From a phage, in assembly GCA_024613925.1 (NCBI GenBank), contig GCA_024613925.1_4713.1: a stretch of DNA of 64,000 nucleotides; one strand, given 5' to 3'. Shown piece by piece: positions 1 to 56,513 of the stretch. A program made the position numbers and the translations under genes. Every line of letters begins with the position of its first letter. The stretch's first letter is position 1. The notes beneath the pieces are model-generated. The model did not search any database. It worked only from the letters and a program-made list of their open reading frames with translations, and was not told where the DNA came from.

Positions 1-41
1 GTAGGGAGGGCATTTATGCCGTCGTTCGATGACTTAATACA

Positions 42-4599: not shown

Positions 4600-4625
4600 T
4601 ACCACAAAGGTAATATAAGCGTGAA
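4600..4625 (-). promoter_or_regulatory. early-promoter-like motif (minus-strand TATATTACCTTTGTGG)
   Basis: One of four near-identical copies of ..TATATTACCT(A/T).G..TG preceded by an A/T tract; resembles recalled phiKZ early promoter consensus TATATTAC. Confidence 0.45.
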
Positions 4626-9211: not shown

Positions 9212-9288
9212 TCCGTTCTCCTCAAGCTTTTTCATTTCATAGAGTGGTGGAAATTCGTAGAAAGTTACAAAAATAAAAAAGAATGGGC

Positions 9289-9319
9289 AGCCTCTCCCCA
9301 CCCGAAGGTAGGGAGAGGC
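9289..9319 (-). terminator. intrinsic terminator-like hairpin with cUUCGg loop and U-rich tail (minus strand)
   Basis: GCCTCTCCC..GGGAGAGGC inverted repeat; on minus strand loop contains CTTCGG and is followed by TTCTTTTTTATTTTT. Confidence 0.45.
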
Positions 9320-9330
9320 CGCAAATATAT

Positions 9331-9879: not shown

Positions 9880-9905
9880 ATCACCTAAGTAATATAGCCG
9901 TGAAA
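9880..9905 (-). promoter_or_regulatory. early-promoter-like motif (minus-strand GGCTATATTACTTAGGTG)
   Basis: Second copy of conserved TATATTAC-containing ~25-nt motif, upstream of gene 9331..9795. Confidence 0.45.
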
Positions 9906-9914
9906 AATGTTGGA

Positions 9915-10712
9915 TTAACGTGTTCTCCTATCCCGATGCGTATACGACTGAAGACCGATGTCCATATGCGGTAACGTTAGCGTCTGCCAGATCTGTCGTG
10001 CGTAGCGATCAAGCGTATGATCGTCAGTAACACAATCGACGGGTTCGATGAGGTGAGTCGTATACTGGCTTTTCTCAGAGAAAGGTTCGAGGTTAGCTGT
10101 ATCTCCTAATCCGCTTTTCACCGTGAAGACAAGACGTGTGACTATCATCGCTTTATGTTGCTGTTCATTATAACGAAGGCTGCGGTATACTGCATAGCTC
10201 CCTCCTTTTAAGCTTCGGGTATAACGAAGGTCGGAGGTCGTCTCGGAAATCTGATACAGCATCCAATCCAACGTATCTCGCCAGTACGCATCATCCACAT
10301 CAGGAACCGTAATACCGTACCGCGTAGGCAGCAATTCTAAAAGCAATTTATAAAGTCCGCGACGCAAGCCATGCTCTTCTGTTTCCGACAAGCCGTTTCC
10401 AACGTAACGTGAAATACGTGTACGTAAATACGTACGGATGAACATATTCGCCATCAGTGTTTTCACTCTGCTACTGGTATCCTCAAAGCGATCAACGCTG
10501 AAACTCGTTTCAATCAACCGTCCATTAAAATACAATGCGGCAACATACATCGCGTTATTACTATCACGTTCAATGTTTAAACGGCCGCAGATATTGGCTG
10601 CGTCGTTCATGGTAAATTCTAATTTATCGTGTTCGATACGATAGATAATATCCTCTTGGGTTGCTAGGCTCGCAATGCGACGATAGCCCGGAGAAGTACG
10701 TTTTACACTCAT
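9915..10712 (-). CDS. hypothetical protein
   Basis: Track ORF 9915..10751 trimmed to ATG (MSVKRT..) with AGGA 5 nt upstream; the track start ATG lies inside the TTTATGCCG motif. Confidence 0.45.
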   Translation of the reverse strand: MSVKRTSPGYRRIASLATQEDIIYRIEHDKLEFTMNDAANICGRLNIERDSNNAMYVAALYFNGRLIETSFSVDRFEDTSSRVKTLMANMFIRTYLRTRISRYVGNGLSETEEHGLRRGLYKLLLELLPTRYGITVPDVDDAYWRDTLDWMLYQISETTSDLRYTRSLKGGSYAVYRSLRYNEQQHKAMIVTRLVFTVKSGLGDTANLEPFSEKSQYTTHLIEPVDCVTDDHTLDRYARQIWQTLTLPHMDIGLQSYTHRDRRTR

Positions 10713-10754
10713 GATTGTCCTCGTTTTCAATTTTAAGATTGCATGCGGCATAAA

Positions 10755-10779
10755 CCCTCCCCGCCTTATGCAGGGAGGG
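10755..10779 (-). terminator. hairpin CCCTCCC..GGGAGGG followed on minus strand by TTTATGCCG
   Basis: Inverted repeat seen in sequence; member of hairpin+TTTATGCCG family. Confidence 0.4.
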
Positions 10780-10794
10780 TAGCCATTAAATGGA

Positions 10795-12041: not shown

Positions 12042-12419
12042 CTGTTTATCGACTATATCTTCATCCTCGTTGCGAGGAGTCTCCCGTTTTGGTCTGTGTT
12101 TAACAGAGCCTACTCTACTCGACATCGCGTCTTTCGATAGTCTGTGAGCACACATCTTAACGAACATTCGTGGATTCCTAAACAGGTGAATGTTCTTGTT
12201 GAGATGCTTCGCTGCGGATTATTCCCGTCCTACCTCTTTTACCATATCCAGTTCATTACGCTGGCCCTCATCTGTGTCACCACGATGAGTTGGTGTGTAG
12301 TCCGATTACAGAAACTTCCCGTCAATTAGAGAGTTTTAACTATGTTCCTGTTACCAGAAACCAGATCCCGACGGTATCAATAAATCAACGTAAGTTATTG
12401 AATTTATTGAAAAAAACTG
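12042..12419 (-). ncRNA. candidate group I intron A in beta-prime gene, inserted within the NADF/DGD codons
   Basis: Exon ends in U; internal guide-like GAUCUG (~12361-12369) can pair with exon end CAGAUU including U-G wobble; P AAUUGACGGGAAG (~12315-12329), Q AAUCCGCAGCGAAGC (~12207-12223), R GCUCACAGACUAUCG (~12134-12149), S AAGAUAUAGUCGAU (~12049-12066) in order; terminal G at 12042; 3' region after S is unusually short (no obvious P9). Confidence 0.45.
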
Positions 12420-13675: not shown

Positions 13676-13717
13676 GGGGTATCTCCTACAAATGAAAAAG
13701 AACGTTAGGACGTATAA

Positions 13718-13741
13718 GGGAGGGAGGTTGCCCTCCCTCCC
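13718..13741 (-). terminator. hairpin GGGAGGGAGG-TTG-CCCTCCCTCCC downstream of chimallin candidate
   Basis: 10-bp perfect inverted repeat between stop of 13768..15663 and start of 12404..13675. Confidence 0.45.
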
Positions 13742-15727: not shown

Positions 15728-15752
15728 TCACCTAGGTAATATAACCCTGAAA
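15728..15752 (-). promoter_or_regulatory. early-promoter-like motif (minus-strand GGTTATATTACCTAGGTG) upstream of chimallin candidate
   Basis: Third copy of conserved motif, ~70-90 nt upstream of ATG at 15663; an ATGACGTCAT palindrome lies between motif and start. Confidence 0.45.
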
Positions 15753-17078: not shown

Positions 17079-19232
17079 TTACTCTGCGGTTTCTCGCTTC
17101 GGTAAATAACTTGCTGCGATGTCTTGGGCTAACAATGTATTGTTTTTATTCGAGATGAAAATACCGTAACTTTCCATTAACGCGTAATACGAACGAACGA
17201 GCGTAGAGATCAATCGACGAATATCCATACCTTGAATAAAGATATCAGGAAGCCCGGAGGCTTCGATCACCGGTAATGGTATCGTTAAGTTGCTTATCGT
17301 TTTCTTATCGTTACGTACAATCCAATCACGGAAACGTTGTTGTAACCCTTTATCCTCCCAGGAATCAATCCAATCGTTAAGAAGCGTTTTGTTCTTCGTC
17401 GCCAACGGCACACGAACCCCAACATAGGGTGGTTCCTGGCAATGGCCGTACGATTGAGCAAACACCTCTTCCCACATATCGTAAGACTGTTTCGTTACCG
17501 CAACATGTGGTTTCACTTTAACACGTGTTAAGAAATCAGGATCACCACGTTTCATGGACTCAACGATTTCGTTTTCTAACGAGATAATATCGTCAAGAAC
17601 CAATCGAATGCTGATCTTCTCATTACGTAACAGCTTATCCATGATACCGCACATCATGCGTTCAACACGTTTGACGATCATTTTTGGTGCTGACGCATCA
17701 CGCATAACCGGACCTTTCAATTCCAGCTTCGGTGGATTGATAGGAACCCCTTCACGCATGGTCATGTAACCGTAATAGTTTTTACCCATCGAGGTTAACG
17801 ACAGAATCAAGAACATATATTCGTTCTTCATTTCCATCACGTACATATGCTCTTTCGCTACACCGATATTACCAGAACACATCGCCATCAGATGAACCGT
17901 AATCTGCGTAACCAGATAGATAAGCGTGTTTGCTAAGCGCGTCGAAACTGGATTGATCTCCATATTTCCAAATCGCCACTGAACCCACTCCTGGCAGGTA
18001 AACACCGTCGAGTCGGTATCAGACAACACGCCCACTTCACGGATTGCCGACGGAAAAGCATAAACGCCAGCCGGTTGGTTCTCGGTACGCCAGAACGCCA
18101 TAATCAAGTCAGCATAACTTTGGATGCGTTGCAGCATTAATTTTGTTGTTGCTGCGGTAAGACGATAACCAAGCTCATTTCCTTTTTCTAGCGCTACGTA
18201 AATCGCTTCCCCATTCAAGAACTCCGTGCATTGTGCTGTAATCCAAGCGACCGTGTTGTTATCCATGGAAGCAATAATGGCTTTAGCCTCTTCCATCGTT
18301 TCAACAGGTTCGGATGCCAGCTCACACAACGAGTCAAGAAAATCTCGAACAAATTCAGGATTAAGCTCACGTAACGAGTACAGGTTATTGCTGTACATGT
18401 AGCAGGCGCGTTCCAACGGCGTTAAACCGGTAATTAACTCCCGGATAGTCAGTTCTTTCTCTGGGTCGAAAGTATACCGATGTAAGCATTTCGATACGTT
18501 AGCCCAAACCTCTTCCGGCGTAGGGTAATGCAGTTTGTATTTTACCATTACCTGCTCAATGGCTTTACGATCGCTGTTACGGACGATGCTTACGATGTTT
18601 TCAATTGCGATATCACAATCGTAATAATGGAAATTGCCCGCAAGGAAGCGTTCGTTGTTCGCATTGGCTGAACCTGAAGCACAGCGACATGTTGTCGTTA
18701 GACTCGGATGCGCAATCGGATTATAAAAAGGGTTGAACTTGGACGCCTGGGTTCCTGACAAACTGTTGTTGTCTAACTTGGTGTTGGTTTGTCGTTTATC
18801 GTGTAGCTCCGCTTCGTCTTTACGTCCGTGTGCTTGCGCTATCGACATTTGTTTCTTTTGTTTCTTACGCAACTTACCGTTTTCAACCGCAAAGTCGCTT
18901 AGCACACTGGAACGTGTTTCACGTGGATAACAGTTAGCCCACACCGGCGTGATAATTAAATTATTTTCTTTAATATCGTTGAAGTATTGGCTGAACTTGA
19001 TGACTTCTTTTTCTCGATTTCCTTCGGTACGCTGCGTTAGTACAAGGCAGTCGGGATCAACCATCCCGTATTTTCCACCAGGACGAACCGTTTCAAGAAC
19101 AAACTGCAACGCTTCCTGCTGAGATATCCCACGCATGCGCATTAAGAACAGGGTATAATCCTGTACCGCTTCTTTGGTCATATCCAACGTACGACCATAT
19201 CCGTTTTCATCGTAAAAGAACGGATTTTCCAT
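17079..19232 (-). CDS. hypothetical protein (717 aa)
   Basis: Long ORF; GGAGG 4-5 nt upstream of ATG; function not recognised. Confidence 0.55.
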   Translation of the reverse strand: MENPFFYDENGYGRTLDMTKEAVQDYTLFLMRMRGISQQEALQFVLETVRPGGKYGMVDPDCLVLTQRTEGNREKEVIKFSQYFNDIKENNLIITPVWANCYPRETRSSVLSDFAVENGKLRKKQKKQMSIAQAHGRKDEAELHDKRQTNTKLDNNSLSGTQASKFNPFYNPIAHPSLTTTCRCASGSANANNERFLAGNFHYYDCDIAIENIVSIVRNSDRKAIEQVMVKYKLHYPTPEEVWANVSKCLHRYTFDPEKELTIRELITGLTPLERACYMYSNNLYSLRELNPEFVRDFLDSLCELASEPVETMEEAKAIIASMDNNTVAWITAQCTEFLNGEAIYVALEKGNELGYRLTAATTKLMLQRIQSYADLIMAFWRTENQPAGVYAFPSAIREVGVLSDTDSTVFTCQEWVQWRFGNMEINPVSTRLANTLIYLVTQITVHLMAMCSGNIGVAKEHMYVMEMKNEYMFLILSLTSMGKNYYGYMTMREGVPINPPKLELKGPVMRDASAPKMIVKRVERMMCGIMDKLLRNEKISIRLVLDDIISLENEIVESMKRGDPDFLTRVKVKPHVAVTKQSYDMWEEVFAQSYGHCQEPPYVGVRVPLATKNKTLLNDWIDSWEDKGLQQRFRDWIVRNDKKTISNLTIPLPVIEASGLPDIFIQGMDIRRLISTLVRSYYALMESYGIFISNKNNTLLAQDIAASYLPKRETAE

Positions 19233-19307
19233 AAATCCTCCAAAAGTTATTTAGTCTGTCTACATCATCTCGTATATCTGTTAAAAAAGAAGGACGGCAT
19301 AAAAAAG

Positions 19308-19335
19308 AACCGATCCAGCCGAAGCCAGATCGGTT
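19308..19335 (-). terminator. intrinsic terminator (minus strand): hairpin with CUUCGG loop followed by CTTTTTTATGCCG
   Basis: AACCGATC..GATCGGTT stem; T6 run follows on minus strand; ~200 nt downstream of gene 19533..19946 and ~75 nt upstream of start of 17079..19232. Confidence 0.5.
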
Positions 19336-23330: not shown

Positions 23331-23352
23331 GCTTTCTCCTACGCGGCATAAA

Positions 23353-23374
23353 AGCCTGCCCCGAAGGACAGGCT
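23353..23374 (-). terminator. hairpin AGCCTG..CAGGCT with CUUCGG loop, followed on minus strand by TTTATGCCG
   Basis: Inverted repeat seen in sequence between genes 23384..23584 and 23010..23330. Confidence 0.4.
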
Positions 23375-23383
23375 CGATAGAAC

Positions 23384-28572: not shown

Positions 28573-28873
28573 GATAGAAATCCTTATTGGTTGCGATTAA
28601 CATATTAAGTTTAAAAGAGGTTATGTTTTACGTCATATTCGATGTATGTATTAATGAATTAGAATACTTGTATTTTTAAGTGAGTATAATAATAGTAATA
28701 AACCTAAATTAATCTCTATTGCTTATTGTTCTATCTAAAGATAGTAAACAGATATAATGCTCCCCACCTCCCCATTCTCCCAAGTAATACTGGCCTACCG
28801 GCCCTCTCCTTTTTAAGGGAGAGAGTAAGCATTCAGTATTGCTCAAATGAATAAGCAAAACAGTATAAACTTA

Positions 28874-28897
28874 CCGTCTCGAGATAACTCGAGACGG
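28874..28897 (-). terminator. perfect palindrome CCGTCTCGAG-ATAA-CTCGAGACGG downstream of gene 28927..29280
   Basis: 10-bp stem, 4-nt loop; start of long AT-rich intergenic region. Confidence 0.4.
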
Positions 28898-28926
28898 CGT
28901 AGTAGTATCTGTTTATCTCTTTTATG

Positions 28927-31762: not shown

Positions 31763-31914
31763 CAATGTAACGGTAAAACTTTACTGACGTTGGTTATTAT
31801 TTGAAGCATAGGGCTTCACCCAGGAGTACCATCCCTTTAAGTCGTTTGTCCTCTCCTGGTTAACTGTCGTTCTCTCACAGTGCTCGACAGACCAAAAATG
31901 CTCAGGCCTCATAG

Positions 31915-31943
31915 CCTCCTCTGGGAATGGAACCCAGAGGAGG
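31915..31943. terminator. strong hairpin CCTCCTCTGGG-AATGGAA-CCCAGAGGAGG between convergent genes
   Basis: 11-bp perfect inverted repeat. Confidence 0.45.
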
Positions 31944-31955
31944 ACTATGTTTGCC

Positions 31956-39890: not shown

Positions 39891-40033
39891 ATGTAATTCC
39901 TTTATTACGGCATATAAGAAAACGGGTTAAGCACACAGATTTACGCATAATTGTAATATTTTACGTTATGCCTATGACATTGTGTCACGTGTGCAATTAT
40001 GTCATACAATTTCCTTAAATTAAGGAGAGTTCC

Positions 40034-43012: not shown

Positions 43013-43039
43013 CGTAAAAAAAAAAAGCATATTAACCTC

Positions 43040-43076
43040 CCTTCCTTCCCTAGCCGTCAAGGCCGGGGAAGGAAGG
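43040..43076. terminator. bidirectional terminator: A11 tract, hairpin CCTTCCTTCCC..GGGAAGGAAGG, TTTATGGTTTATTT
   Basis: 10-bp stem flanked by A-run (5') and T-rich run (3') between convergent genes. Confidence 0.55.
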
Positions 43077-43088
43077 TTTATGGTTTAT

Positions 43089-44041: not shown

Positions 44042-44144
44042 AGCGCTAACCCCAAAGGATAAAAATAAAACCTTGACATAACCACCACCGCAACCCCATA
44101 CAGGGCTACGGTGGGGTCATACAGAGAGACGTGTTAGGTTACAA

Positions 44145-44739: not shown

Positions 44740-44762
44740 TCAGTTAGGTAATATAGACCTCA
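44740..44762 (-). promoter_or_regulatory. early-promoter-like motif (minus-strand GTCTATATTACCTAACTG)
   Basis: Fourth copy of conserved motif; overlaps stop codon of upstream gene 44760..45560. Confidence 0.45.
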
Positions 44763-45560
44763 ACTTTTTTCCAATAATGCCGCAACGTTCCGCGCGAAAC
44801 GAATTACCTTGTAATTGCGGGTCTGTTTGATATCTTCTTCCCCATCACTGTCACCTTCTGACGGATCTTCCCACATGAAGTCTTGTTCGTCCGCTTTCTG
44901 TAAGTAGCGGTATAACTGCACCATGCTGCGTGCGGTCGGAGAGATAGCGCGAAGCTCATCCAATTCTTCATCCGTCAACAGAACGTGCGATGAACGCAGC
45001 GGCTCCATTGTCGTATTACACAACAGACGAATCAGCAGATCGACGCACGGAATAACAGAACCTGGCGATGCGATTTCTGGATGTAACGTATAACCCCAAT
45101 ATACGGTGTTAAAATACGTCAAAACAGCAGGTAGTGACGGATGTTCCATCGCACGGCCAATTTGTTGTCTTACGATAGATGCACGATCGTTCAACACATC
45201 GAAAGTAATCTGCTGCGGTTCCATAACCGCAAGTGAAATACCGTACGCGTCAGCCACGCCCAGGATTTCATGAAGGGTCGAACGTTCTTCTTCGGCGGAT
45301 ATTGTCCCGATTGCTTTACGCCCTGCAAGGTCAATCAGCATCGGTGAAACAGCTTCTTTAACCGCATTAAAAGAAGCCTGGTAAGCGTGTTTGTGAATAT
45401 ACAGTGTCCACGCTAATGCGCGCTCAGCCGCATGAAGCAGATCGACATAAGACAGTTCTTGATGGCATGGGCCATACACACTCACAGCAAGCTTGGTGGC
45501 TTTCTCAGAGGCTTGCATAATAACATCTGGTGATTTAGGCATATCGCGTTCTTCTTGCAT
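44760..45560 (-). CDS. hypothetical protein
   Basis: 266-aa ORF; hairpin+TTTATGCCG element ~100 nt upstream. Confidence 0.5.
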   Translation of the reverse strand: MQEERDMPKSPDVIMQASEKATKLAVSVYGPCHQELSYVDLLHAAERALAWTLYIHKHAYQASFNAVKEAVSPMLIDLAGRKAIGTISAEEERSTLHEILGVADAYGISLAVMEPQQITFDVLNDRASIVRQQIGRAMEHPSLPAVLTYFNTVYWGYTLHPEIASPGSVIPCVDLLIRLLCNTTMEPLRSSHVLLTDEELDELRAISPTARSMVQLYRYLQKADEQDFMWEDPSEGDSDGEEDIKQTRNYKVIRFARNVAALLEKS

Positions 45561-45663
45561 CTTTTTAAATTCCTACTTAACAATAAAGTTCATATACGGC
45601 GTATGTATCCGTAGAATAATGGGTTCTGGTAAGATCTTACATCAAAATGACGGCATAAAAAGT

Positions 45664-45691
45664 ACCTCCTTACCCACATGGGTAAGGAGGT
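45664..45691 (-). terminator. hairpin ACCTCCTTACCC..GGGTAAGGAGGT followed on minus strand by ACTTTTTATGCCG
   Basis: 12-bp stem; T5 run on minus strand. Confidence 0.5.
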
Positions 45692-45842: not shown

Positions 45843-46652
45843 TTACCAATGATTAAAGCTGCCCGCTTTAACGACGTCGCAACGCAGATGGTTACGTAAC
45901 TGATCCAGGAAGACAACCGGACTGTCGCCAGACAACATAGCCAGCGCGTGTTGACCGCCTGAACGAACAACAAGCTCATCAACCATTGGTGCTGTAATCG
46001 GGAGATCATACGCATCCATGATTGCTTTAGCTTGTTGTTCTACGTCTTTCTGGAACCCTTCCATCGTCGGAGAGTCATATTTGGTTGCAAACTCGATCCC
46101 TGGCAAGTTAACGTAATCATAAGTCATGACGCGGGTCATAACACGACGGCGCTCACGTTGCCAGATCTGAGGATCGGTTAACGCGCGAACCGAAAAACAC
46201 ACGTTCACCAGCGGCGTTTCAAAATCTTTACGTAATGGATCGCCGTACGGCCCGCAAGGAATAACATCCCCCATCACCATCACGACAGGACGCCCACGAC
46301 GATCACGTCCAGCTTCTTCTAACCAAATCTTAGAAAAACAGTGGCTCACCTTCGTTTCTTCGATTCGTAATGCTCGCTGCAAAAAGCTGGTTGCATCCTG
46401 ACCGATCTCTGGTTTAGGGTGACCGTATTCCCCTTTCAACGAACGATTGCGTGCGTTTGTTTGCAATAAGCTGTTTTCCAGGAACAACGGTTTCGAACGC
46501 TCAAGTTCGTAATACTCTTCGGTATTGTTAAAACAGTTAAATCCGCCTATAACACAGGTGTAGGCACCGTCAGCATTAGGACGGATAATACCTTTCTTAT
46601 TCACACCAAGATAACTGGTGCAAACAAGATTACTAATTGGTGGTTGCATCAT
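45843..46652 (-). CDS. hypothetical protein
   Basis: 269-aa ORF; AAAGGGG upstream; TTGACGTAAAAG motif ~45 nt upstream. Confidence 0.5.
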   Translation of the reverse strand: MMQPPISNLVCTSYLGVNKKGIIRPNADGAYTCVIGGFNCFNNTEEYYELERSKPLFLENSLLQTNARNRSLKGEYGHPKPEIGQDATSFLQRALRIEETKVSHCFSKIWLEEAGRDRRGRPVVMVMGDVIPCGPYGDPLRKDFETPLVNVCFSVRALTDPQIWQRERRRVMTRVMTYDYVNLPGIEFATKYDSPTMEGFQKDVEQQAKAIMDAYDLPITAPMVDELVVRSGGQHALAMLSGDSPVVFLDQLRNHLRCDVVKAGSFNHW

Positions 46653-48175: not shown

Positions 48176-49699
48176 TTACACCTCGCTAACCTGGATAACG
48201 TAAAGCTGTTGGGCCACGTAATCGGTGGTCAGATGCATTGTTGCGATGGTCGCAGCTTCGAATACCGTGAGTTCAGGACGTTCACGCATAATCAAATCGA
48301 TCTCGTCGATGAGACGGTTAACGCCTTGAGCGTCTTCGTGATGCATGGTTTTCACGTACAGCGTACGGAAATACTGCTGGAAGTTAGCTACGTCGGTATC
48401 GGTAAGGGTAGCAACTTCACCACGTACGATTTCCATAACCTTCTTACGGGTATCTTCATCGAGGTCCACTGTAATCAGGTCAGCAAATACGCCCTGCAAT
48501 GCCAACGCGTATGCACGTAAACGGTTTGCAGCTTGCTGGCTGGCTTTCATGTTGATGTAGTTACGGTAATGTTGCATGAAACCAGCACCGTTAGCCAACA
48601 GTTCGTCTTTACTGATGAGTTCGCGTTCTAACAGGACAGCTGCGGTCAGTGCTTCCGGCGAACCACCTTCTTGCAGATAACCCATGTAGACATCTGCGTT
48701 AACGAAAATCGTCATCGCTGACGCGTCTTCAGCACGTTGAATCTGAGAAGCTGACGGTGCAGAAAGAATCAGTTCACCACGCTCCATACGCAGGATACGA
48801 TCACGACCGACGCGGGCCATCCCGTTGATCGCCGCAGCACGAGCTTGTTGCATTTTAGCGCGGTAGTTTTCAAGCATCATGTCGTTGCCGTCCTGGATAT
48901 CTTCCAGCAGGTTAACGGCCCACATATAGCAGAGGAATGCAGGAGTTGCCGCAGCGCGGGAACCGTGGAATGCAACATTATCGCTATCCGGATATGTAAT
49001 CAGATAAGCGGTGTTGTTTGAAGAAGGAGCAGAACCACGGAAGAAATAGTTGTAGATGTCTTCCAGTGCCTGATCGCTCATCCCTTCCGTCGCTTGCTGC
49101 ACAAAACGATCCAGGTTTTCATTACCGGTATACAGCAACGTACGCAGCTTATCACCGGTGATAAACGCAAGCTTTCCGGTTGGGGTGAAATCGTTATTAA
49201 TCGAAATCAAGCCGTTGAGGTCGTAATCGCTAACTAAGGTCTGGTACTCTTCGGAGTTATAAAACTCAGGATAGTAACTCAGACTTACTGTCGGGATCAG
49301 TTTCGGTGCCAGGATGATCGAATCGATACGTTTTTCCAGTTCCGGGTACAGCGCACGGCATTTCGGCAGGATGGTATTACGCGCCAACTCTTTGGCATAC
49401 ACCACTTTTTCCACCACGTCTTGAACTGCGGTCTGTAAAACTTCATCGTGGATATAAACCTCGCGTTCGCTGGCAGGTGCTACAGCGCCATCTTCGGTTT
49501 CATCAAGTGTTTCAGCAACAACCATACGTTCAGCACTAAGCTGCACCAACGCATCCGCGTCTTCCGGTGGCTGGTTCCAATGCATGGTTTCACAAACCGC
49601 GGCTAACGGCGTACCTGGAATGGCTGCGACGATTTGGTTACGTTTGATAAACCCTTCGACAATGGGTTCAACGGCATAAACGGTTTTATTGGTGATCAT
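48176..49699 (-). CDS. hypothetical protein
   Basis: 507-aa ORF. Confidence 0.5.
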   Translation of the reverse strand: MITNKTVYAVEPIVEGFIKRNQIVAAIPGTPLAAVCETMHWNQPPEDADALVQLSAERMVVAETLDETEDGAVAPASEREVYIHDEVLQTAVQDVVEKVVYAKELARNTILPKCRALYPELEKRIDSIILAPKLIPTVSLSYYPEFYNSEEYQTLVSDYDLNGLISINNDFTPTGKLAFITGDKLRTLLYTGNENLDRFVQQATEGMSDQALEDIYNYFFRGSAPSSNNTAYLITYPDSDNVAFHGSRAAATPAFLCYMWAVNLLEDIQDGNDMMLENYRAKMQQARAAAINGMARVGRDRILRMERGELILSAPSASQIQRAEDASAMTIFVNADVYMGYLQEGGSPEALTAAVLLERELISKDELLANGAGFMQHYRNYINMKASQQAANRLRAYALALQGVFADLITVDLDEDTRKKVMEIVRGEVATLTDTDVANFQQYFRTLYVKTMHHEDAQGVNRLIDEIDLIMRERPELTVFEAATIATMHLTTDYVAQQLYVIQVSEV

Positions 49700-50033: not shown

Positions 50034-51143
50034 TTATTTAGCGTCGTTAAAGTAAATATCAACAGCTCGTTCCGTTGCGTAGAGGAGACCAAGATTCACA
50101 GTCCCAACCACTTCCGGTGAACCGATGATACGGTTAGCGATACTGGTGCCACTGAAGATAGCATCAAGGGTGTGCCCGTCTTCGGTTTTGTTCACACCAT
50201 GACCCACGGAAGAGACAACGGATTTCGCTTGTGCTGCGAAGGTACCTTTATCACCCATCCCCGCACCAAGGTCGTAACGCATGAAAATACGGATAGCGAT
50301 CTGGTTCTCGCCTAACGGATTGCCGTCTATTCTCACGTTACTATTGTTGATACGCCCTGTTGCTGCCTCGTTGAGTTTCAGTTCCTTAACGCGTTTAGCT
50401 CGCGCTTTATCCGCTTCACCGACGAGCGCCGCCATGGTTTCACTCATATCCTCAATCTGAGCACGGTACAGTACATCGATCTGTACAACTTCACCATGAA
50501 CGTCAGCACGTGGGTTATACTGACTCATACGACGTAATGCTTCAACGGCTTCCTGACTCTCATCACTCAGATCGGTTGCAATCGGTTCTTCCAGTGTTGC
50601 AAGAATCGTTCGTGGTTCAACGTGATCACCGATTTTCACAAGACCACGAATATTGAGATGGGCGTCAACGATGAGCGTACGGCTCTTAATCGATGGTGTT
50701 ACGAGACGATCGGCAAGATTGTCGAAGATATACGAACTGTCCTCGTGCGTCTCTGGAATATCCAGAATACCGACAAGAGACAGCACACCTGCGCGCCAAA
50801 CAACCTGGCCTGGGTTCCACCAATCGCGTTTGAAATAAAGACGATGGAAAACCACCACATCCTGATCCTTAACGCGATCCCCGACTTTATAATCGGTAAT
50901 GAGATCGTGAGGATAATACTTACCTGGCCCTTTCCCGATTATCGTACCGAGCTGGAAAACCTCTTCCCCTAACTCTGGATCGTCGTATTGTATCGTAAGC
51001 GCAGTTTTGGTGACCTTCTTAACAACACCATCGCCTTGGGCGGCGGCCGCGAAGAGTTTACCAACACGATGCGCGATAACAGTCTCACCGCCGGTGCGCC
51101 ACGGTTGTACATCGTAACCCTCAGCGGCAATCATGCGGTTGTG
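50034..51143 (-). CDS. RNA polymerase beta subunit (virion RNAP candidate), proposed exon 2
   Basis: Track ORF 50034..51164 starts at TTG with no RBS; from HNRMIAAEG it resembles beta ANRALMGANMQRQ, then TGGETVIAHRVGKLFAAAAQGDGVVKKV vs [26 protein letters not shown], and GDKGTFAAQAKSVVS vs GDKMAGRHGNKGVIS (E. coli beta recalled). Confidence 0.5.
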   Translation of the reverse strand, partial: HNRMIAAEGYDVQPWRTGGETVIAHRVGKLFAAAAQGDGVVKKVTKTALTIQYDDPELGEEVFQLGTIIGKGPGKYYPHDLITDYKVGDRVKDQDVVVFHRLYFKRDWWNPGQVVWRAGVLSLVGILDIPETHEDSSYIFDNLADRLVTPSIKSRTLIVDAHLNIRGLVKIGDHVEPRTILATLEEPIATDLSDESQEAVEALRRMSQYNPRADVHGEVVQIDVLYRAQIEDMSETMAALVGEADKARAKRVKELKLNEAATGRINNSNVRIDGNPLGENQIAIRIFMRYDLGAGMGDKGTFAAQAKSVVSSVGHGVNKTEDGHTLDAIFSGTSIANRIIGSPEVVGTVNLGLLYATERAVDIYFNDAK

Positions 51144-51656
51144 CTGTATACCTATAAATACCAATCTCTTGGGCGAATTTAGTTCTTATTCAACATAATC
51201 GTACTATTACCAGAATAAGACTGAGATTAGATTGTTCAGATAAGGTCGTTAATCTTATCCCGGAGGCGACGATAGGCACATCACCTCCCGCTTGCGCTCT
51301 CACGCAAGAGCAGACTATATCACATCTCGTTTCAAACGGTGCTTCTTCAGCACCTCAACGAGAGTTCACTTCTTCCCAGCGCATCCAGCGCCATTCTCTT
51401 ATCCAAGGAGAATGCCTCACTCGAGGGGTACAGGGGGATGAATCCCTTAGTCGTTGAACCTTTACCTTAGAACGCTTCACAGCGATCCTTAGGTACTTGG
51501 CTGCGGATTGTCCTTAAGCTATTATCTGTTTTTATAACCATACCGTCTTTCTTTTCAGAATCCGTTTTGGTCGATAACAGCGATGGATGTCTTCGCAATT
51601 CAGTGAATCTCATCTACATGTCGCCACATAGACGGACCCTGCTATTAAAAGCGTTA
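51144..51656 (-). ncRNA. candidate group I intron in RNAP beta gene, inserted at conserved HDD/ANR motif
   Basis: 513 nt with no ORF; minus-strand P AAUUGCGAAGACAUCC (~51583-51602), Q AAUCCGCAGCC (~51495-51513), R GUUCAACGACUAAGG (~51436-51466), S GUGAUAUAGUCUG (~51305-51326) in order; UUGCG/CGCAG and GACUA/UAGUC complementary; exon 1 ends in U followed by UAA; G precedes exon 2; splice keeps frame (..DRDD-HNRM..); P1 pairing not identified. Confidence 0.5.
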
Positions 51657-54600
51657 ATCATCTCTATCAGCAGCAGGTACTGCAAGCGCCGACGTACTCA
51701 TTATTGACGAGCTACCATCCGTTTTCTCGTCGTAAGGTTTCGTTTCACCGTATACAGACACAATGTTTGCGTTAGGTGCGAGGTAAGCAGAAATACCTAC
51801 GTCCCCACTATCCTTCGTACCTTCGGATACAACACCAATGTCCGACTTGTCGTATTCACGATCGCGTGCGCGTCGAAGCGATGTCTTTGAACGACCCCCG
51901 ATACCGGTCATCGTCGCTTCTTCACCCTGCTTGATATCCAGCATCGGGTTGGTTTCATCGATTACGATGGAAGCGCTGTCGTCGAGAATCTGGTTCCAGA
52001 CGCTTACCGGACTGATTGAGATTTTCTGGCGGTTTCCTTGACTGCTGTTCTCATTCTGACGAATAGCGCCAACCAGATCCTTATACACCAACTCAGCGAA
52101 CTTATCGTACGTTTTAAAACGTTGGTAGTTCACATCGTTCGTGTTAGGTGCCCAATCATCCAGAAGCAGTTCGACGGCACGCAGTAACAACATGGCGAAA
52201 TCGGTAGGTTCTCCCATGTTCTGCAGCAACGTACGGCTTACCGGATCAACGAAAAGACGCTCCATGAGTTCAAGTTCGCGTAAATGGCGAACCTTAAGTC
52301 CAGCCCCATCGACAACGTTAAAATAGATATCTCGATTGTCAAAAGCGCCGCGAGCGTAACCAATGTAGTTACGGTATTCGTTAAACCCACCCAGCAACAA
52401 CGTCGTCATGCGATCGTCTTTACTGAAGATCAGACTTTCGTCGTCAAAGCTCACCGCGAATTCATCGGGTGCTAACCCCATACGAGAGCCGCGAGGTACC
52501 GTACGATAGTTCGCTTTAAGATGTTCTAATAACGGGGTAAGCCCACCCAGATAACTTAGAACAACACCGACCGGAATACGTACACCCATGAATTCAAGAT
52601 CGGCGGCTTCGATCGGCATCTTAGCCGCATTGATACCGAAGAAATCAGGGAACGTCCCTACAGGTGTTGGTGTTTGTCCTGACTGACAGATATAGAGCTG
52701 ATTGCGTTTATCGATTGCTAAGAATTCACCCAGCGTGTTACGCGCAAACGTCAGGAGTCCTTCGGCTAACTGTTCGTTGAACCGATCTTCCCCAATGAAC
52801 TCCGGCAATGTCTTTGTATCGAGACGTATATCCCAATCAGCAAATTGGATTTGGGTATAGTTGCGTGCAAGCACAGCGAAGTAATACGGAACTTTGACAG
52901 CTGGATCAAAGACGTTACCACGTTTCAACGTGGTTAAGGGTGAGGACTTATCGTAATACATCGCCGTAAGTTGACGTGTTAGCCAACGACCCGCATTATT
53001 AACGACACGCTCTGAACGTTTAACAAACACCTTACCGTAGGCGGTACTCAACGCAACTTCAGATGACGATACCTTTCTAATAGGTTTATCAACACGTTGT
53101 TTACGCATCCGGTATTTGATGCCGTTAACGACATAAATGCCGTCCTTACGAACCTTCGGCAACATCACCGGGAACGTGGTCGGGACACCGCCTACAGGAG
53201 CCAGTTTAATCGTGATGACTTGATAATCCCCCATCACGTCAACAACATCTTCAACTTTATATCCCGTGACAGGGTAACCTGCCTGCTGTACCGCAACGAC
53301 GGCAGCTGCGATGTCCTTTTGCATTACGTGTTCAACGTAATGTTTATCCCACACCGCAAGCGTCGATTTACACAGGCTCTTATCGACGATAACATCCGCT
53401 TCCGGCATAACCTTTGCAGGCGCTAATTTTGCGGCTTTTGGTTTAACTTCAACATACTCAGCAAGTGTTAATCCAGAACCGTCGGGTGCTTCGATTTCAT
53501 GGATGGCGTCAGCATTACGCATCGCTGCTTTATATTGGACACCGCTTAACTGACCCGCATCCGCCAGATCGCTCGCGCGTACCAACACCGCATCCGATAA
53601 CGACTGAATATATTCGCCATGCGTTTTCGGTAACGTTGCCGCGTCAAAGACATCAACCTTTTCTTCTTCGGTATCGTCGGTAACGACTTCGAAGAGATCG
53701 TCGGTAATGTCCTGATCTTCATCGGGCTGGAAATCTGGTTGTACTTCTACCCCGGGTACTTCACGGACATCTTCGAACGAGCGTTCTACAATGGCGTTCC
53801 ACGCATCGGCATCATCGTCTTCATCCGACCCACCGACCAACTCCGCTTCTAACTCGTCGGGATCAAGAACGGTAGCGAGATCCTCACCGTTAGGAAGCAC
53901 GACGTCGCGATCATCATACTCCGCATCCGGGCTGTCCGCAAGAATATCTCGCTCTTGACGAAGAACCTGTTCCTCTTCTTGTTTCTGTTCTTCTTCATTC
54001 GCGCTCTGCGACCACAGACGTGTTACCGCCATCATCCAACGACGTTGGAAGGTTTCAAGTGTCGTTTTATCGAGTTCTTCCCCTTCCTTCACAAGTCCGG
54101 TACGCCATTCTTCCAGCAGGCCGAGATTCAGCGTAAAGAAGTACACACCGTCTGTAAATACGATGTTAAGCTTATCCAGCGTGGCTCTGTCTAACGAAGC
54201 CATCGTGCTGTTCTCACGATCGGTTCCCAACCAGCGGAAGAAGTCAAAGAACGACAGCTCCTCCGGTGTGGCGAAATTCATGAGGTTATTACGGGTCGGT
54301 GCCTGTTGCGTGGTACGCATCAACGAAATCTTCGGCAATGTTGACGGTATACGGAACAACAAAAAGTGTTGGCGATCGCTTTGCTGTGCGATTTCGTTGG
54401 CTTTCGACCAAATTGTTTTACGTACGTTGAACCATTCATCATACCAACGGGTGAGCGTTGGACGATAAATGTACATGTGGTTAAGATGCGCGTAGTTAGC
54501 AACGATCTGAGCGTTGATGTTTTTCTCCACCGTGCTTAGATCGGTAACCAAACGAAAACGACGATGTGATGCACGATAATCCAATTTCGCTCGTGGGAGT

Positions 54601-54863
54601 TGGAATCGTTGATCACGTCGAGGTGCACCCTGTTTGGTTGCGAGATCATCAGCAAACGAAATCCATAGTTGAGCACTTTCTTTACTCAGCATGTATTCGT
54701 TTTCTGGAGGACCTATCAATGAAGGATCCGTTGCGGTGTAATGATAGACAGCATAACGCGGCAGCTGCAATAGCTGCACTAAACGTAATCTTGGTGATAG
54801 TAACTCTTGGTAGCGTCTGACACCAAACTGTCGGTAGTAATCAAGGTATTTAAGTTTTGCCAT
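51657..54863 (-). CDS. RNA polymerase beta subunit (virion RNAP candidate), exon 1
   Basis: 1069 aa; C-terminal DETNPMLDIKQGEEATMTGIGGRS resembles beta Rif-region [24 protein letters not shown]; ends ..SALAVPAADRDD like ..ASLIPFLEHDD; AGLKVRHLRELELMERL resembles VGLVRVERAVKERL; GGAG RBS; long acidic insert. Confidence 0.5.
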
Positions 54864-54866
54864 GGG

Positions 54867-56513
54867 TTAGGCTCCACGAGGTCCCGTTAAGTTGCGTAAT
54901 AGGAACGCAACCGTATCGTAACCAATATCAATGTTGAATTTATTTTTACCACTTACCCAGAAAGCTCGCTTCTTGTGCGAGTTGGTAATTTCGTCAATAG
55001 CTTCCATGGAATAAAGAACGTTAACCGAGACCGTATCACCGTCGAAGTCCGCCCCGAGGCCAGCTAGAAACACCTGGCCGACTTGGGTCGTTTCTACAAA
55101 TGACGCTTTCAATGACCAATCTGGGTATTCCCATGCCATATACCGATCGCCTTCTAACGGTTGCCAATCGACACCGAGTTCTCTTCTTGGCTTCGTGTTA
55201 ACTGTCGTCCGCACATAGCAGGTTAACGGTATAACTGATTGCATTCCCGATACTGGATAACGTGTCACCATCGCACCGAGTTTATTCCAAAGATGATAAC
55301 CGCTCAGATAAACCAATTCGCAGTATGTAACCGGATGAACATTAGCGCCAGGTTTGTTCAGCATCTCTGGGGGTATTTCACTCATGCCACGGAATAACCG
55401 AAACGAATCGTTGTTCACATAGACGAGGCAAAGATAACGCCCATTAACCATGATAGGTTCGTTACGCACACCAGGATCGCTTAGCGTGTTCAGTAAACGT
55501 TCGATACCGTCCCACGTTGTAAAGTCATCGATGGTATCTGGGTCTAACGTGACGCGTTCACGTTCCATCGTTTCGGTATCGATAAGCTCAGCTTCAGTAA
55601 CATCACGAACAAATATTTCCTGCAAAATCCCCGTACGTAATGCGTGCTGTGTGATAGGAAGAGCAGCCTTGCTCATCTGATATAGACCAAGTTGTACTGA
55701 TGTACACGAAGTCTGGTTCGGTGAGCCGAGAACCTCTGTAGTTGGGATGACAGCCGAAATAACGTTACGGGTTGAGTTCCAAACGCGACGTGAACCGAAC
55801 TTCCCTTGGAAGATCCCTTTCTTACCTTGGAACATATCCAACAACAAAGCGTAGATATCGTTGAATGTTCTCTGTAAGCTCCAGCGCTGGCCGTCGTAAA
55901 CGGGATCGGAATAATCTTTTAATCCATCAGGGACGGTGTTAGAAATTGCAAGGAAACGACGATACAACTCCGTGATTTCTTGCTCGCTTTCATACCCGCC
56001 TTCTTTTACTTCTATTTCACGTAAGCCTGCAGGTAATACCAGTAAGTGACGGGTCATCGCTTTGAACATGTTCTCTTCGACAACTTTAATTCGTAGCTCT
56101 CGTTGAGCTGAACCCGTTGAAACGAACTTGATATCCGCGACGTGTTGTGCAAAGAACCCGTATCCTGTTTGTCCTGTTAACGCATCAGACGCAACGAAGT
56201 CGCGTTGTTCAGGATCCCAACGAGCATACGCCTTTCCCGACATGATATCACCATAGAGGTGTTTTAGTCGAATGAGGCGGTCGTAAATGACAGGGTGCAG
56301 GATTTCAACCTTGCATTCAATCACCGCAAATCGACGGTCTCGATCTTCACTACCTGCACTACCAAAGATGGTGTAAGAATAGAAACCATCATCGTGGAAA
56401 TTACCGGTGCTTGGGTCACGAATGCTCATGCTCGTGATCTTGGGGAGAAAACGTAACTGCTGTTTATCGAGGTGTAAAATACTAATGTTAAACGGCTCTC
56501 TGACTTTAGCCAT
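54867..56513 (-). CDS. RNA polymerase beta-prime N-terminal fragment (virion RNAP candidate)
   Basis: Contains intact catalytic motif GADFDGDTVSV (NADFDGD family) and GKKGIFQGKFGSRRVWNSTRNVISAVIP matching [24 protein letters not shown]; track ORF trimmed to ATG (MAKVRE..) with GGAG 8 nt upstream; adjacent and divergent to giant lysozyme-domain gene as phiKZ gp180/gp181. Confidence 0.6.
   Translation of the reverse strand: MAKVREPFNISILHLDKQQLRFLPKITSMSIRDPSTGNFHDDGFYSYTIFGSAGSEDRDRRFAVIECKVEILHPVIYDRLIRLKHLYGDIMSGKAYARWDPEQRDFVASDALTGQTGYGFFAQHVADIKFVSTGSAQRELRIKVVEENMFKAMTRHLLVLPAGLREIEVKEGGYESEQEITELYRRFLAISNTVPDGLKDYSDPVYDGQRWSLQRTFNDIYALLLDMFQGKKGIFQGKFGSRRVWNSTRNVISAVIPTTEVLGSPNQTSCTSVQLGLYQMSKAALPITQHALRTGILQEIFVRDVTEAELIDTETMERERVTLDPDTIDDFTTWDGIERLLNTLSDPGVRNEPIMVNGRYLCLVYVNNDSFRLFRGMSEIPPEMLNKPGANVHPVTYCELVYLSGYHLWNKLGAMVTRYPVSGMQSVIPLTCYVRTTVNTKPRRELGVDWQPLEGDRYMAWEYPDWSLKASFVETTQVGQVFLAGLGADFDGDTVSVNVLYSMEAIDEITNSHKKRAFWVSGKNKFNIDIGYDTVAFLLRNLTGPRGA

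Follow-up and report, generated by a model that had tools for sequence, protein, structure and literature searches.

Between two genes at positions 45650 to 45691 of the window (the whole 64-kb stretch of phage DNA that was analyzed), a GC-rich hairpin is closely followed by a short tail that recurs elsewhere in the same DNA. What is this composite element, and why does its tail recur? A first-pass annotation had counted at least four such sites on the minus strand and left three readings open: a terminator with a specific 3' tail, a late promoter, or a processing site. It also proposed motif enrichment across the genome as a check. We conclude that a hairpin followed by a TTATGCCG tail is a well-supported jumbo-phage terminator signal. 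The element is probably (at a probability of roughly 0.8) the Goslar-lineage form of a terminator conserved among the phiKZ-like jumbo phages (Chimalliviridae), and termination at the window's own sites is predicted from motif homology. It is an ordinary regulatory element of an already-known kind, not a new type.

The window matches positions ~156,175 to 222,751 of Escherichia phage vB_EcoM_Goslar at about 93 to 97% identity, block by block. Goslar is a 237-kb nucleus-forming jumbo phage of E. coli in the genus Goslarvirus, and across the window's span its record holds several RNA polymerase (RNAP) beta-type subunit fragments, the nuclear shell protein (ChmA), and the tubulin PhuZ. Goslar encodes split beta/beta' RNAP subunits. 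This identity and annotation place the window among the phiKZ-like phages with their own virion and nonvirion multisubunit RNAPs.

Exact copies of TTTATGCCG occur six times in the window (at 13 on the plus strand and at 10746, 19295, 23344, 45651, and 49672 on the minus strand), versus 0.62 expected from dinucleotide shuffles, and none of 100 shuffles reached six. Five of the six are intergenic and start 0 to 4 nt 3' of a GC-rich hairpin on the transcribed strand. The window contains 120 strand-specific hairpins with a ΔG of -10 or lower, and by our own arithmetic a random position has a chance of about 0.7% of lying 0 to 6 nt after a hairpin. Therefore, finding five of six copies there is far beyond chance. 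The hairpins before the complete sites have ΔG values of -17 to -22 kcal/mol. The exact copies and their surroundings are as follows.

45650 to 45691, minus strand: full element, reading ACCTCCTTACCCATGTGGGTAAGGAGGT-ACTT-TTTATGCCGT from 45691 to 45650; the hairpin is at 45664-45691 (ΔG -21.8), the spacer is ACTT, and the tail is at 45650-45659.
23343 to 23375, minus strand: full element; hairpin GAGCCTGTCCTTCGGGGCAGGCTT at 23352-23375 (ΔG -17.4), followed directly by the tail TTTATGCCGC with no spacer.
19294 to 19335, minus strand: full element; hairpin AACCGATCTGGCTTCGGCTGGATCGGTT at 19308-19335 (ΔG -17.8), spacer CTTT, tail TTTATGCCGT.
10745 to 10780, minus strand: full element; hairpin ACCCTCCCTGCATAAGGCGGGGAGGGT at 10754-10780 (ΔG -22.0), followed directly by the tail TTTATGCCGC.
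1 to 22, plus strand: element truncated by the window edge; 3' arm GTAGGGAGGGCA at 1-12, tail TTTATGCCGT at 13-22.
49672 to 49680, minus strand: chance match; the gp209 homologue has an exact TTTATGCCG within its first codons, and no hairpin accompanies it.

All five hairpin sites have TTTATGCCGT or TTTATGCCGC as their tail, which fits YTTATKYYGT. The number of T residues before ATGCCG varies (six at 19294, five at 45650, and three at 10745, 23343, and 13-22). Arms that are C rich and G rich occur at 1-12, 10754-10780, and 45664-45691, and the stems at 19308-19335 and 23352-23375 are GC rich with other sequences. The copy at 49672 is considered a chance match because it is coding, lacks a hairpin, and is not exact in Goslar. 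All four minus-strand sites that had been described (near 10746, 19295, 23343, and 45651) are present in the sequence, as is the plus-strand copy near 13 after a truncated arm, for which Goslar supplies the complete hairpin, CCCTCCCGCAACGTAAGGCGTAGGGAGGG. The first-pass annotation missed the sixth exact copy at 49672 and underestimated the scope of what is a genome-wide, family-level signal.

The neighboring genes vary. The element at 45650-45691 separates the homologues of the head-maturation-protease gene (45843-46652) and gp213 (44760-45560). The start codon of the gp236 homologue is 14 nt 3' of the element at 23343-23375. The element at 19294-19335 is 5' of the DNA polymerase homologue (17079-19232), and the one at 10745-10780 has the gp184 homologue on one side and the gp183 homologue on the other. 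The first-pass annotation had placed the element upstream of a start codon. That holds for the four minus-strand sites, where a gene starts 14 to 90 nt downstream. It does not hold for 1-22, which is 3' of gp172 (plus) and faces the 3' end of the convergent gp173 (minus), with no same-strand gene downstream.

For genome-wide enrichment we took the whole Goslar genome and listed all intergenic hairpins with a ΔG of -10 or lower. Goslar has nine exact copies of TTTATGCCG; eight adjoin GC-rich hairpins, and every stem is different. Near variants (TTTATGCTG, TCTATGCCG, CTTATGCCG, and TTATGCTG) follow dozens of sense-strand hairpins. A TATG tail was found after 34 of 79 sense intergenic hairpins, compared to 3 of 38 antisense and 10 of 318 coding ones, and for TATGYYG the corresponding fractions were 19/79, 0/38, and 1/318. 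Together with the six copies against 0.62 expected in the window, this bears out the enrichment that had been proposed as a check. TATG is present in all 42 TATG-anchored Goslar tails, which have T (22) or C (10) at -4, C (25) or T (10) at +2, T (18) or C (15) at +3, G (26) at +4, and T (24) at +5. The consensus tail is YTATGCYGT, and the stem mostly ends 1 to 5 nt 5' of TATG. Therefore, TTTATGCCG is the best-conserved subset of a wider element, a hairpin followed by (T/C)TATG-C-Y-G-T. Hardly any intergenic TATGCYG in Goslar lacks a hairpin, and hairpin-less TATGYYG matches are mostly plain start codons; this speaks for termination as the function under selection.

The type of gene junction is informative. 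At tandem junctions, 25 of 67 hairpins carry the TATG tail; at convergent ones, 16 of 32 do. Convergent copies without a same-strand gene downstream are found after gp007, gp030, gp063, gp083, gp172 (the window's 13-22), and gp187 (the genome end). Many convergent units are symmetric, reading CATA-stem-loop-stem-TATG, so that each strand carries a tail. The element is as frequent where no gene follows, and it matches the mapped phiKZ motif described below, both of which support the suggestion of a terminator with a specific 3' tail, the one of the three readings that the evidence bears out. A run of five or more T residues within 12 nt follows only 7 of 101 post-gene hairpins in Goslar. Because canonical U-tracts are so rare, the tailed hairpin appears to be this phage's main terminator type. 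About half of the Goslar sense hairpins go without TATG; therefore, the tail is not obligatory. Among the few canonical-looking intrinsic terminators in the window is one at 9287-9322 (minus), with a 16-bp GC-rich stem (ΔG -34) followed by CCATTCTTTTTTATTTTTG and no TATG tail.

Looser and variant members of the family were also found in the window, along with one hairpin-less copy.

31905 to 31953, both strands: bidirectional unit at the convergent ends of the gp224 (plus) and gp223 (minus) homologues; hairpin at 31915-31943, ΔG about -22 on each strand.
43024 to 43086, both strands: bidirectional unit at the convergent ends of the gp217 (plus) and gp216 (minus) homologues; hairpin at 43040-43076, ΔG -28 and -27.
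44071 to 44114, minus strand: looser member 3' of the gp214 homologue; hairpin CCACCGTAGCCCTGTATGGGGTTGCGGTGG at 44085-44114 (ΔG -23.3), then TGGTTATGTCAAGG.
13708 to 13741, minus strand: variant 3' of the nuclear-shell (ChmA) gene; hairpin GGGAGGGAGGGCAACCTCCCTCCC at 13718-13741 (ΔG -22.4), then TTATACGTCC.
28860 to 28898, minus strand: variant member; hairpin GCCGTCTCGAGTTATCTCGAGACGGT at 28873-28898 (ΔG -19.7), then AAGTTTATACTGT (variant tail TTTATACTGT).
39905 to 39917, minus strand: TTATATGCCGTAA without a hairpin, in the gap that separates the divergent gp219 and tail-sheath homologues.

The looser tails of the unit at 31905-31953 are ACTATGTTTG (plus) and CTATGAGGCC (minus), and the whole unit is identical in Goslar. 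Those of the unit at 43024-43086 are TTTATGGTTT (plus) and GAGGTTAATATGCTTTTTTT (minus). In the variant after the nuclear-shell gene (TTATACGT), the G of TATG is replaced by A. At 39905-39917, the G of TATG is 21 nt 5' of the start codon of the gp219 homologue, and the TATGCCG is conserved in Goslar. This site is a candidate late-type promoter start rather than a terminator. Hairpin-less variants had been described on both sides of this region, and both are there: TATGCCG at 39908 and TTATGCC near 39966, the latter in the sheath-side promoter region.

Comparison of the window with Goslar revealed which parts of the element are held constant. The tails are unchanged, and substitutions fall in the hairpin tops with pairing kept. 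At 45664-45691 the only difference is a TG<->CA flip in the loop. At 44085-44114 there are six substitutions, all within the hairpin, whose stem still pairs, and the tail does not differ. The element at 10745-10780 is identical in Goslar. The differences at the tops of the 45664-45691 and 44085-44114 hairpins look as if the center had been reverse complemented (TG<->CA; CCCTGTATGGGG versus CCCCATACAGGG). The Goslar record itself marks two of the hairpins as a putative transcriptional terminator, at 180588-180607 (the 23352-23375 hairpin) and 176545-176568 (the 19308-19335 hairpin), with the tail unannotated. One and the same terminator, ...GGAGGAGGGT-TATGCCGT with a long A-run after it, stands at both ends of that record (1-60 and 237250-237307), which points to a terminal repeat or to an assembly join made at a terminator.

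The same pattern extends to much more distant phages. After the head-maturation-protease gene, IMG/VR relatives with 37 to 43% protein identity all keep a strong hairpin with a TTATGCC/TTATGCYG tail, and their stems are mutually unrelated. The junctions between stem end and tail read ...GGGGGC-TTATGCCC, ...GGG-TTATTATGCCAG, ...CCCA-TTTATGCTGA, ...GGGGCC-CTATGCCGTC, ...GGCAA-TTATGCCCT, and ...GTGTC-TTATGCCGC. Three of the relatives (L016, L018, and L020) also share conserved blocks ~25 to 110 nt after this terminator: ACATATC (~25 nt past the tail), AAATTTAT, and GTTGCTATAGYCTAAG. These blocks lie within a ~175-nt noncoding gap before the next gene, are absent from the Goslar lineage, and could be a promoter or a small RNA.

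We also used an annotation-free approach by ranking the 4-mers enriched just 3' of hairpins with a ΔG of -12 or lower in stretches of ~35 to 50 kb. TATG ranked top in phiKZ (6.4-fold), Erwinia phage RAY (5.5-fold), and Goslar (4.8-fold). In Ralstonia RSL2 it was third (5.6-fold), behind CCTA (5.9-fold) and CTTA (5.7-fold). It was not enriched in the stretches tested from a SPN3US-like Salmonella phage, Vibrio BONAISHI, Aeromonas ZPAH34, and the Bacillus AR9-like outgroup, where T-runs or TTAT(T) prevail after hairpins. Among the phages sampled, the tail thus spans several genera and hosts and yet is lineage restricted, not universal in the family.

Published transcript maps from two Pseudomonas phages supply the functional counterpart. 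The 3' ends of phiKZ RNAs were mapped by ONT-cappable-seq, and 61 termination sites share the motif BCCYCCCCHWWDGGGRRGGBYTTATKYYGT (Putzeys et al. 2024, microLife, PMC10914365). In 201phi2-1, terminator "motif A" (n = 59) "strongly resembles" the phiKZ motif, and eight of its terminators were functional in vivo in reporters in uninfected Pseudomonas, with no phage proteins (PMC11512511). We saw the arrangement directly in phiKZ DNA, as GGCCTTCCCTCAGGGGAAGGCT-TTATGTCGT and, 3' of the major head protein gene, as AGGCCCTCCCTTCGGGGAGGGCTT-TATGTTGT. The literature searched yielded no Goslar transcriptome, promoter map, or transcript-end data for a Goslar-like phage. The sequence features of the phiKZ-type terminator were found here: a stable GC-rich stem-loop, the YTTATKYYGT tail, and a mostly intergenic position at the 3' ends of genes or transcription units on the sense strand. 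Of the sites that it covered, a generic scan for sigma-70 promoters and intrinsic terminators detected just the 19308-19335 hairpin, and overall it did no better than on shuffles. Since the scan caught only this one, canonical models miss such terminators.

How the element might act can be outlined. On the transcribed strand, the GC-rich hairpin, whose 5' arm is often rich in C and whose 3' arm is often rich in G, is followed within 0 to 5 nt by (T/C)TATG-C-Y-G-T in place of a long U-tract. Formed in the nascent RNA, the hairpin may release the phage (and host-type) multisubunit RNAP within or just past the tail. The A/U-rich UUAU would provide a weak proximal hybrid, and the conserved G-Y-Y-G-U might serve as a pause or another polymerase-specific signal in place of the U-tract. 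The bacterial elemental-pause consensus has G at -10, Y at -1, and G at +1. By that consensus, a pause is conceivable at the Y-G step, ~7 nt past the G-rich 3' arm.

Termination alone gives no account of why the tail contains TATG. In phiKZ, the late promoter core of the nonvirion RNAP (nvRNAP) is 5'-TATG-3' with G as +1 (Yakunina et al. 2015, PMC4666361), so the first-pass annotation was right that these promoters center on TATG. TATG is necessary there but not sufficient, and undefined downstream sequence contributes ~30-fold (PMC4666361). A 2026 structure has the beta-like subunit bound to the nontemplate TATG (structures: PMC7618050 and PMC12809450). One proposal is a dual function, in which the hairpin stops transcription and TATG, with G as +1, is a late-type nvRNAP start that reinitiates it at once for the downstream gene, CCGT being a favored initial transcript. 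We regard this as unlikely. The gene starts 14 to 90 nt downstream at four window sites fit it, as does the copy of TATGCCGT that stands, with no hairpin, in a divergent promoter gap 21 nt 5' of the gp219 start codon. However, the tail is as frequent or more so at convergent ends, and it also stands at the genome end; at neither is anything left to transcribe. The late-promoter context is different, too. The phiKZ reference late promoter p119L has AT-rich sequence upstream and no hairpin, and reads TATGTAGAC. The published late-promoter logo has no conservation past TATG (PMC4666361). In 20 divergent Goslar intergenic regions, the TATG candidates are followed by variable sequence, not CYGT, with the sole exception of the one 5' of gp219 (window 39908). 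Furthermore, the downstream genes include DNA polymerase and thymidylate synthase and form no clear late class, and at 45651 a second, hairpin-less TATG is nearer the gene.

A promoter-only reading was rejected. The tail is equally common at convergent ends, promoter regions lack the hairpin and CYGT that the element has, and the downstream genes are of mixed classes (e.g., DNA polymerase). The late-promoter suggestion thus fails as an explanation of the element: the copy at 13-22 and 15 other convergent copies in Goslar have no same-strand gene downstream and drive nothing. The embedded TATG could have a promoter function at some copies, the most plausible being the hairpin-less one at 39908, but such a function is not what maintains the element.

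We examined whether TATG is avoided within genes. On the sense strand of Goslar genes, TATG occurs at 0.69 of the expectation from synonymous-codon shuffles (z about -15 to -18), making it the 12th most depleted of 256 tetramers. By the same measure, AATG, CATG, and GATG are at 0.89 to 1.06, TATC is at 1.24, and the reverse complement, CATA, is at 0.73. GGAG, CCCC, and CCCT are also depleted on this strand. Measured against codon shuffles, TATG is depleted in the genes of all chimallivirus samples (0.51 to 0.86) and not in those of the Bacillus AR9-like outgroup (1.02), which suggests a live signal and is a point for the dual function. Across lineages, the depletion did not track the presence of the tail, and tail-less chimalliviruses are depleted too. 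This suggests a family-wide polymerase signal that is not specifically one of termination.

A second role of the tail, in restart or pausing, is possible on this sequence evidence. More specifically, the nvRNAP pocket that reads late-promoter TATG on the nontemplate strand might also read the terminator tail, either as a pause that replaces the U-tract or for restart at the G. We offer this tentatively and think it improbable. If it were true, a single 4-nt signal would control both where transcription units begin and where they end in these phages. TATG occurs 0 times in the main text of PMC10914365 and 0 times in that of PMC11512511, and as far as those main texts go, the link between terminator tail and TATG promoter appears not to have been drawn before.

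The third reading is that the hairpin and UUAUGYYGU form an RNA tag or processing site, bound by a nuclease, a 3'-end protection factor, or a phage-nucleus mRNA export factor, and that the mapped 3' ends are processed or protected ends and not termination points. Some of the published 3' ends at the motif might conceivably be products of processing. The conservation of the tail goes further than a generic intrinsic terminator requires, and nucleus-forming phages must export mRNA and encode RNA-binding proteins. However, this reading has no positive support, and the RNA-binding protein ChmC yielded no sequence motif. The 201phi2-1 terminators work in uninfected Pseudomonas reporters (PMC11512511), and termination fully accounts for the placement and strand bias. 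We therefore judge a processing site to be very unlikely. A mobile or REP-like repeat or chance recurrence is hardly credible, because although a subset of Goslar hairpins has similar arms (CCCTTCCCT..GGGTTGGGAGAGGG), the five window sites have stems of unrelated sequence, conservation is limited to the tail and the pairing even at the orthologous site in very distant relatives, the transcribed-strand bias is strong, and the enrichment is far above that in shuffles. A REP/MITE-like element in particular was rejected, as the copies do not share sequence over their whole length.

Some observations concern the annotation of these genomes. The annotated starts of Goslar gp183, gp111, gp047, and gp167 are the ATG within a tail TATG, and the window counterpart is at 10751 (open reading frame 9915-10751). 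In gp183, an in-frame ATG lies 39 nt downstream, with a GAGGA ribosome-binding site. These four starts are probably miscalled, and gp047 and gp167 may be spurious. An Rfam scan of the window found no family covering the hairpin and tail; its sole match was a group I intron (RF00028, 56 bits; window 51164-51670, Rfam match 51291-51658, minus) that splits the gene for a large RNAP beta subunit (gp207 homologue, open reading frames 50034-51164 and 51654-54863). The corresponding Goslar interval measures just 24 bp, and the intron insertion is therefore particular to the window phage. Conversely, two stretches of Goslar are missing from the window, one being the HNH endonuclease gene gp186 and the other a group I intron with the endonuclease-like gp206 (window ~12043-12046 and ~55046-55200 versus Goslar 168217-169281 and 211754-213950). 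Therefore, the window phage and Goslar differ chiefly in which introns and homing endonucleases their RNAP genes contain.

A separate box, TATATTAC, occurs four times in the window, always on the minus strand, which is the gene strand (4610-4617, 9889-9896, 15736-15743, and 44748-44755); the copy at 15736 is 5' of the nuclear-shell gene. Four copies against 1.9 expected in the window is not significant on count alone. The box recurs in divergent Goslar gaps as C(A/G)GG(C/T)TATATTAC(T/C)T, and we take it to resemble the phiKZ early (virion RNAP) promoter box.

If the element is merely an ordinary terminator, the finding is routine. It provides an annotation rule: a sense-strand hairpin followed by YTATGCYGT marks transcription-unit ends in Goslar-like, Erwinia (Agricanvirus), and Ralstonia (RSL2-like) jumbo phages. 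The rule also flags start codons misplaced on the ATG of the tail. A tail described in two Pseudomonas phages is shown to be conserved across hosts and genera and to be missing from SPN3US-like, Vibrio, and Aeromonas relatives. This terminator tail embeds the polymerase's own start-site tetranucleotide, which is avoided inside genes. It poses the question of how sigma-less split RNAPs terminate without a U-tract, and whether a recognition pocket is common to termination and initiation.

The element can be set beside three known systems. Like a phiKZ late promoter, its tail holds TATG, and the copy at 39908, which has no hairpin, sits at an expected promoter position; unlike one, it has an upstream hairpin and CYGT, and it sits at convergent ends too. 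Like a canonical intrinsic (Rho-independent) terminator, it has a GC-rich hairpin right after a gene and depends on orientation; unlike one, its U-tract is missing or short, the usual 7 to 9 nt being replaced by UUUAUGCCGU. The differences from the phiKZ and 201phi2-1 terminators are smaller. The host is E. coli and the genus Goslarvirus. The Goslar tail is more GC rich (TATGCCGT/TATGCTGT, versus mostly TATGTYGT in phiKZ), and the window stems at 19308-19335 and 23352-23375 depart from the CCYCCCC/GGGRRGG arms of phiKZ. In other respects the element is like the terminators of those two phages. It is a GC-rich stem-loop whose 5' arm is rich in C and whose 3' arm is rich in G, directly followed by YTTATKYYGT, and it is found at the 3' ends of genes and transcription units, on the transcribed strand, in dozens of copies per genome, in a host-RNAP-independent jumbo phage with two split multisubunit RNAPs.
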